Positions 661 through 1,441 of a DNA stretch of 1,473 nucleotides are shown here, one piece after another. Source of the DNA: Naegleria gruberi. Its lineage: Eukaryota. Both the position numbers and the translations under genes were made by a program. The DNA is taken from assembly GCA_000004985.1 (NCBI GenBank), contig GG739413.1; one strand, given 5' to 3'. The notes under the pieces are model-generated. The model ran no database searches. It was not told the DNA's origin and saw only the letters and a list, made by a program, of their open reading frames with translations. The first letter of the stretch is position 1. Every line of letters starts with the position of its first letter.

Positions 661-669
661 CAGGTGAGT
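661..669 (+). other. Near-consensus 5' splice donor CAG|GTGAGT. The exon would end at 663 and the intron begin at 664.
   Basis: caggtgagt matches the eukaryotic donor consensus MAG|GTRAGT at every position. It is followed by a T-rich stretch (gttattgtattttttt), as is usual for plant introns. Confidence 0.35.
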
Positions 670-930: not shown

Positions 931-991
931 ACCCAAACCCCACCAACCCAAACCCAAAAATAGAATTCTTCTAAACCCAACCTTCAAACCC
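931..991 (+). repeat. Cluster of degenerate Arabidopsis-type telomere-like units (AAACCC / AACCC / CTAAACCC), an interstitial telomeric-like sequence.
   Basis: Five units lie within 57 bp: AAACCC at 935-940, 950-955, 973-978 and 986-991, and AACCC at 945-949. ctaaaccc at 971-978 is a circular permutation of the plant telomere unit CCCTAAA. C-strand orientation is on the + strand. Confidence 0.5.
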
Positions 992-1001
992 TAGCCCAAA
1001 A
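986..1001 (+). promoter_or_regulatory. Telo-box (AAACCCTA, Up2) fused to a site II / Up1-like element (AGCCCAAAA, the reverse orientation of TGGGCT).
   Basis: aaaccctagcccaaaa places AAACCCTA at 986-993 and AGCCCA at 993-998, which is the reverse complement of the site II motif TGGGCY. AGCCCAAAA closely resembles Up1 (GGCCCAWWW). In Arabidopsis, telo-box plus site II pairs are characteristic of ribosomal-protein, translation and cell-cycle gene promoters and 5' leaders (Tremousaygue et al. 2003). The pair are the Up2 and Up1 motifs of Tatematsu et al. 2005 (genes up-regulated on axillary bud outgrowth). TCP and TRB/Pur-alpha factors are thought to bind them. Confidence 0.5.
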
Positions 1002-1262: not shown

Positions 1263-1441
1263 GTATCAAGTGAAAAGGGAAGTTGTGAGGTACAATAGGT
1301 CAACTATAACTTTTGAGTTTCTCATCTAAACATATTGAATCCTGACATGAAAATGTTCCATTTGATGAGTACATATCGAATATCAAATTTATTTTAACTT
1401 TCATATTTACAGATTTCTTCCCTCAACCATCATGGTCAACT

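Follow-up and report, generated by a model that had tools for sequence, protein, structure and literature searches.

The locus described here raises the question of whether a short sequence that joins a plant telo-box to a site II core marks the start of a transcribed gene, or is a look-alike in non-genic DNA. The sequence is a 16-mer at positions 986–1001 of a 1,473-nt stretch of DNA, hereafter referred to as the window, and an earlier note on the same DNA had read it as a promoter or 5′ leader element that lies downstream of a TATA box and announces a + strand gene with a growth- or translation-related function, starting at or beyond the right edge of the window. Our analysis upholds the motif identities and a tendency toward the + strand, however, it yielded no support for the gene itself, for a role of the TATA box, for a promoter layout of the ribosomal-protein type, or for a link with PRC2. 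By analogy with plant promoters, the 16-mer is quite possibly a promoter-proximal telo-box/site II module near a + strand Pol II start, a reading that we advance tentatively.

Identity of the 16-mer

An exact search of the 1,473-nt window returned AAACCCTAGCCCAAAA once, at 986–1001 on the + strand, and with up to two mismatches allowed there was no second site in the window, nor any in 200 shuffles. Its first ten positions (986–995, + strand) read AAACCCTAGC, the extended telo-box of promoters, an exact match to the 10-nt promoter consensus from highly expressed Arabidopsis genes (PMC3390389), and the telo-box AAACCCTA starting at 986 is the sole copy in the window. The site II core reads AGCCCA on the + strand and TGGGCT on the − strand (993–998); it is the sole TGGGCY/GCCCA in the window, and within the 16-mer the GCCCA core and the telo-box have one base in common. 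This confirms the proposal that the sequence joins a telo-box to the reverse complement of site II TGGGCT, and the assignment of the telo-box as Up2 is in agreement with the PLACE entries quoted in PMC3390389, where Up2 (telo-box) is AAACCCTA and Up1 (site II) is GGCCCAWWW/TGGGCY.

The suggested near-match to Up1 likewise holds. Compared with the Up1/Up2 pair of axillary-bud outgrowth genes, Up2 is exact in the window, whereas AGCCCAAAA agrees with Up1 GGCCCAWWW at 8/9 positions, the match being inexact because the first G is replaced by A. A motif scan of the window found no exact copy of GGCCCAWWW, only its GCCCA core, and the extended site II consensus AAGGCCCAWT does not occur in the window. 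A full-text search for AAACCCTAGCCCA in print found no publication.

Shuffling was used to gauge how readily such a composite arises by chance. Of 5000 dinucleotide shuffles made from the complete window, 7.6% contained a telo-box and 30% contained a site II core, while the two occurred at most 15 nt apart in 1/5000 (0.02%). When only the C/A-rich tract that ends in the 16-mer was shuffled, a telo-box was obtained in 4.3% and the telo-box/site II composite in 0.125%. Given this rarity, chance and base composition do not account for the composite, a statement that, like the shuffle figures themselves, applies to a single window, the composite having been chosen post hoc from many windows.

Coding, RNA and compositional context

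The G+C content of the whole window is 31%, with values of ~0.35–0.385 before position 600 and 0.20–0.29 thereafter. The CpG observed/expected ratio for the whole window is 0.43 and that of TpG 1.43, and not a single CpG occurs between 843 and 1065; the loss of CpG together with the excess of TpG is compatible with past cytosine methylation. There is no long ORF, since no frame of the window has a stop-free stretch of more than 71 aa, and no coding start was recognized 3′ of the motif, where the stop-free stretches in 1002–1473 measure at most 42 aa and the ORFs that begin with an ATG either run to 17 codons at most or are interrupted by the window end. The ten longest stop-free segments matched no Pfam family, a concatenated six-frame query returned no protein homologue at E ≤ 0.01 (5645 candidates, 5.8 billion clusters), and neither search detected the remnant of a transposable-element protein. 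An exact-product look-up for two ORFs of the window returned no record. No tRNA was found in the window, an Rfam search at E ≤ 10 returned sub-threshold matches alone, none of them at the gathering score, and a reading by eye of the C/D boxes downstream of the motif disclosed no pair with a terminal stem. With no coding, tRNA or Rfam signal, the window is therefore regarded as non-coding eukaryotic DNA, and a plant nuclear non-coding origin is plausible for a sequence that is AT-rich, ORF-free and CpG-depleted.

Alternative genetic codes were considered and rejected, TGA being frequent in all frames with no convincing ORF; the ciliate code was included since the C/A-rich tract looks like Paramecium-type CCCAAA/CCCCAA repeats. 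A bacterial promoter/terminator scan was set aside as irrelevant to the DNA of the window.

Some further features of the window may be mentioned in their own right. A sub-threshold, C/D-box-like match to archaeal sR52 at 459–514 on the + strand (22.6 bits, the gathering score being 50; E 0.045) contains GGATGA, AGATGA and CTGA boxes and has no convincing terminal stem; it is probably a chance match. A palindrome, CCCTATCAAACCGTAGGG, at 348–365 is followed by a T-run and then by C/T-rich patches at 387–440, and a telo-box with one mismatch, AAACCGTA, is located at 355–362. The resemblance of this region to 973–994, with TCAAACCGTAG at 353–363 and TCAAACCCTAG at 984–994, was considered as a possible internal duplication and discarded as not significant, 15/200 shuffles scoring as well.

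A possible promoter-proximal module

In Arabidopsis, the combination of telo-box and site II marks promoters of genes for ribosomal proteins, ribosome biogenesis and snoRNAs (Gaspin et al. 2010, PMC3022908), and 3317/3896 intergenic TeloSII loci lie upstream of protein-coding start sites, while 160 of the 3896 coincide with non-coding RNA genes already known (Qu et al. 2015, PMC4660826). In a set of 118 highly expressed genes of Arabidopsis, 46 have the telo-box consensus AAACCCTAGC, on either strand and for the most part between −75 and +25, and site II, AAGGCCCAWT, is found at −150 to −25 with a preference for the sense strand, i.e., as GGCCCA (PMC3390389). The hexamers AGCCCA and GCCCAA are position-sensitive in Arabidopsis, with peaks at −85 and −72 (PMC1832190). 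The density of Arabidopsis telo-boxes is 680 per Mb in 5′ UTRs, as against 155 in the genome, 151 in introns and 185 in the remainder, so that 5′ UTRs have 4–5 times the genome-wide density (PMC3022908). Most Arabidopsis telo-boxes are nevertheless located elsewhere, 2426/21057 being in 5′ UTRs (PMC3022908), which weighs against a promoter-proximal reading.

By analogy with Arabidopsis and rice, the 16-mer would belong to a TeloSII promoter of the housekeeping or growth class, in which TRB-type Myb proteins (or Pur-alpha) would occupy the telo-box while the GCCCA core would be bound by class I TCP factors, and the binders of the two elements would jointly raise Pol II initiation nearby. The motifs and their statistics, the tract, and the lack of coding or known-RNA signals are direct observations, whereas the plant source of the DNA, the binding of proteins, the strand, the start site and any effect on transcription are features that we infer. 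On the published positional rules, the + strand start would fall at ~1019–1061 if the promoter is TATA-less, and at ~950–970 should the TATA box at 921 be in use. Because no recognizable coding exon exists in the window, the part of the transcript within it would have to be a long leader, an intron in the leader, or a non-coding RNA; any coding sequence would be located past the right edge.

The TATAAAA at 921–927 on the + strand is indeed located where the earlier note had placed it, 59 nt (about 60 nt in the note) upstream of the 16-mer, and as TGTATAAAA it agrees at 8/9 positions with TCTATAAAA, the TATA box found at −50 to −25 in the 118 highly expressed Arabidopsis genes (PMC3390389). Its assignment as a fitting promoter element could not be sustained, however: with a start dictated by this TATA box, site II would lie at ~+25 to +45, outside the interval of −150 to −25, and the start-site estimates obtained from the TATA box and from site II disagree. 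Regulatory elements of this kind are moreover under-represented in TATA-type promoters (PMC3190954), and Arabidopsis and rice TeloSII promoters are usually TATA-less, in contrast to the present case. A motif scan counts seven TATAWAW in the window, four on the + and three on the − strand, and a mirror-image TATAAAA is present on the − strand at 1029–1035, on the other side of the 16-mer and 28 nt from it. In view of this frequency and of the mirror-image copy, the association of the 16-mer with a TATA box is weak, and because the − strand has its own TATAAAA (1035–1029), the TATA argument picks no strand.

Other attributes of the sequence mildly favor the + strand as the transcribed strand, namely the excess of C over G on this strand in the tract (GC skew ~−0.5), the presence of GCCCA on the + strand, which is the preferred sense orientation, and the occurrence of TTCTTC at 966–972. 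The latter is part of a pyrimidine patch, TTCTTCT, located by motif scan on the + strand; TTCTTC, the complement of GAAGAA, is one of the Y Patch hexamers, which depend on direction, and occupies −100 to −13 (PMC1832190), and GCCCA, GAAGAA and AAACCCT are the three motifs of Arabidopsis ribosomal-protein promoters (PMC3212954). The locus thus shares with the TeloSII module of Arabidopsis and rice an exact extended telo-box adjoining a site II core, TTCTTC/GAAGAA nearby, and a presumed sense strand that is C-rich and G-poor.

The similarity does not extend to the layout that is typical of ribosomal-protein promoters, where the telo-box is located 0–280 nt, and redundant site II elements 80–400 nt, before the ATG (PMC3022908). 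While site II is redundant and upstream in the Arabidopsis and rice module, the window has one site II core, and it is 3′ of the telo-box; there is furthermore no credible ATG or ORF in the 0–280 nt past the telo-box, and no snoRNA within 472 nt. Since the only site II is on the 3′ side and neither a plausible start codon nor a known RNA was found in 472 nt, an architecture of the ribosomal-protein type, as implied by the earlier note, does not apply to this locus. The locus may still be a generic TeloSII promoter, provided that the leader is long or contains an intron, or that the product is non-coding; an intron in the leader could account for the missing start codon.

The remark that telo-boxes recruit PRC2 through TRB proteins is the part of the earlier interpretation that is least likely to apply, site II not being enriched at TRB-PRC2 sites; the combination of site II and telo-box instead goes with TRB-PEAT sites at ribosomal genes (PMC13132431). 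As in telo-box Polycomb response elements of the SEP3 promoter type, there is a single bona fide telo-box, on which TRB2/TRB3 depend (PMC13132431). In the window, however, the telo-box is fused to site II, which is enriched at TRB-PEAT rather than TRB-PRC2 sites, and no GAGA-type partner motif was noted beside the 16-mer.

Concerning the product, the 472 nt past the module contain no structured RNA at an Rfam gathering score, and a single feature to consider, a stable, imperfect hairpin of 54 nt at 1410–1463. The hairpin has a predicted folding energy of −21.6 kcal/mol, with z-scores of −3.75 on the + and −2.84 on the − strand, and inverted-repeat arms at 1406–1421 and 1452–1467, close to the right edge of the window. 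It contains ATGATGA (1442–1448) and CTGA (1460–1463), boxes that are situated ~420 nt downstream of the telo-box/site II module, and its sole Rfam match is to mir-9449, sub-threshold and on the − strand (E 5.9). The hairpin also overlaps an acceptor-like TTTACAG/AT. One might envisage that the module drives an unannotated + strand non-coding Pol II transcript with a processed part that includes the hairpin, and which, by analogy with those recovered in promoter-based screens in Arabidopsis, could be an orphan snoRNA, a sno-miRNA or a lincRNA; we consider this highly improbable.

A telomere-like tract possibly without function

The 16-mer is the 3′ end of a G-poor, C/A-rich, telomere-like tract of 74 nt (928–1001, + strand), which is recognized by composition, AACCC clustering and local alignment. 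The tract consists of 42% A, 42% C, 13.5% T and 2.7% G, and holds 5/6 AACCC pentamers of the window. Its local alignment with (AAACCCT)n scores 36, as against 14.8 ± 4.2 for shuffles, 1/500 of which did as well, and its alignment with (CCCAAA)n scores 48, as against 18.3 ± 4.8, with 0/300 shuffles as good. Tandem Repeats Finder reported no tandem array in the window. From these alignments and the lack of a reported array, the tract reads as a decayed telomere-like or microsatellite-like stretch, with the telo-box as its sole intact unit. The sequence resembles a degenerate repeat of the telomere type: in common with plant interstitial telomeric repeats it shows clustered AACCC and a similarity to (AAACCCT)n above that of 499/500 shuffles, while it differs from them in having one intact unit and no tandem array, and in fitting CCCAAA better than the plant 7-mer unit. 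The alternative by which the earlier note would have considered itself refuted, an interstitial telomeric relic, consequently gains some ground from the fact that the motif ends an array-like 74-nt tract, and loses some from the failure of Tandem Repeats Finder to report an array.

It is possible, if rather doubtful, that the tract is a decayed interstitial telomere-like or CCCAAA-type microsatellite, or a transposable-element fragment, without a role in transcription, and that the telo-box/site II look-alike is merely its best-preserved end. Alignment scores above those of nearly all composition-matched shuffles and the concentration of AACCC would be expected of such a relic, and the surroundings, ORF-free, low in G+C and depleted in CpG, are as in methylated non-genic DNA. 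In Arabidopsis, 11309/21057 telo-boxes (~54%) are in the compartment "other", outside UTRs, introns and CDS (PMC3022908), and 132 of the 3896 intergenic TeloSII loci have transposable-element signatures (PMC4660826). Against a relic stand the lack of an array and of any transposable-element protein remnant, and the low frequency of the composite in shuffles of tract composition. In addition, promoter telo-boxes are themselves thought to arise like microsatellites (PMC3022908), and a telomere-like origin therefore leaves function possible.

The 16-mer in metagenome contigs

The distribution of the 16-mer elsewhere bears on both a promoter module and a relic. A scan of metagenome contigs gave at least 120 loci, with 121 sites among the matches listed, and by blastn none of these loci resembles the window outside the 16-mer; a 25-mer spanning the motif had 0 matches in metagenome, viral and GTDB genome contigs. 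Among the matches listed, 66/121 sites lie within stop-free stretches of at least 120 aa and are chance occurrences in microbial coding sequence. At least about 8 of the 121 sites listed are in telomere-like arrays or satellite, and a dispersed AT-rich repeat family with the 16-mer has at least 10 members among the matches listed (L012, L025, L050, L056, L062, L067, L091, L098, L104 and L109; 71–88% identity over ~400 nt); the source of the family is probably a plant host among the communities sampled. The presence of the 16-mer in a dispersed repeat and in arrays or satellites is in line with a relic, however, membership of the window in the repeat family was rejected, since blastn found nothing and nhmmer gave 7.1 bits confined to 978–1036.

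A different setting was encountered in L072, L085, L094 and L110, which represent one plant locus with the 16-mer (4908–4923 in L072). Here, the 16-mer starts 126 nt before the ATG of a gene for a two-RRM, hnRNP-like protein (RRM_1, E 1e-17), and is directly followed by a CT-rich patch. This locus can serve as a natural positive control for the 16-mer as a 5′ element of an RNA-metabolism gene. The exact 16-mer is accordingly found in the 5′ region of an RRM gene as well as in repeats and arrays, so that the sequence by itself is not diagnostic, and with its further occurrence in microbial coding sequence, function is not decidable at this level.

Two plant-like contigs, L017 and L077, are 72% identical and have an inverted telo-box, CTAGGGTTTTC, ~45–60 nt upstream of the 16-mer and more site II motifs, TTTTGGGCT/TTTGGGCC, downstream of it; they are either a promoter dense in telo-box and site II, or a repeat.

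Intronic, minus-strand and non-plant alternatives

An intronic position of the telo-box is unlikely. It would entail a + strand gene in which one exon ends at 663 and the following one begins at 1412, with an AT-rich early intron of 748 nt between them. The donor CAG/GTGAGT at 661–669 (+) is a perfect match to the 9-nt 5′ splice-site consensus, and the acceptor TTTACAG/AT at 1405–1413 (+) is a good one; the drop in G+C after position 600 would suit an exon–intron transition, and in Arabidopsis the first two introns of genes show an enrichment of telo-boxes (PMC3022908). However, no ORF reaches the donor or continues from the acceptor, and no frame has a protein homologue. Plant introns are U-rich, whereas A exceeds T in 664–1411 on the + strand (0.39 versus 0.34). 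Splice-like sites on the − strand (935 and 31) are equally good, which means that the splice reading picks neither strand and leaves the donor at 661–669 ambiguous as a splice site. The − strand sites are donor-like GTGAGT/GTGAAT, with GTGAGT at 935, and neither adjoins an ORF with homologues.

We also regard it as improbable that the 16-mer belongs to a minus-strand or bidirectional promoter, with a leftward start at ~1000 set by the TATAAAA at 1035–1029. In the − strand orientation, TGGGCT comes before TAGGGTTT, in the canonical order, site II being usually upstream of the telo-box (PMC3022908), and a TATAAAA is available on that strand 28 nt from the motif. The telo-box is active on either strand (PMC3390389) and site II hexamers are direction-insensitive (PMC1832190). 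On the other hand, the leader would be G/T-rich and devoid of a pyrimidine patch, the extended site II prefers the sense strand as GGCCCA (PMC3390389), and neither an ORF start nor a homologue was found in the 985 nt leftward of the motif.

That the window comes from another AT-rich, non-plant eukaryote, where AAACCCTA and GCCCA would not have the meaning of telo-box and site II, is very unlikely: the tract does match repeats of the CCCAAA type no less well than it matches the plant unit, but the ciliate and other alternative codes open no long ORFs, and AAACCCTAGC, GCCCA and TTCTTC together are the trio reported for plant ribosomal-protein promoters (PMC3212954, PMC3390389).

Significance of the proposed telo-box/site II module

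The motif pair on which the tentative promoter-proximal reading is built is textbook plant promoter biology, and this instance of it opens no unresolved question. If functional, the locus would be one more case of a module of which thousands are on record in Arabidopsis and rice, and its use would be to point, in unannotated plant sequence, to a housekeeping or growth-related gene close by, or to a gene for a non-coding RNA.
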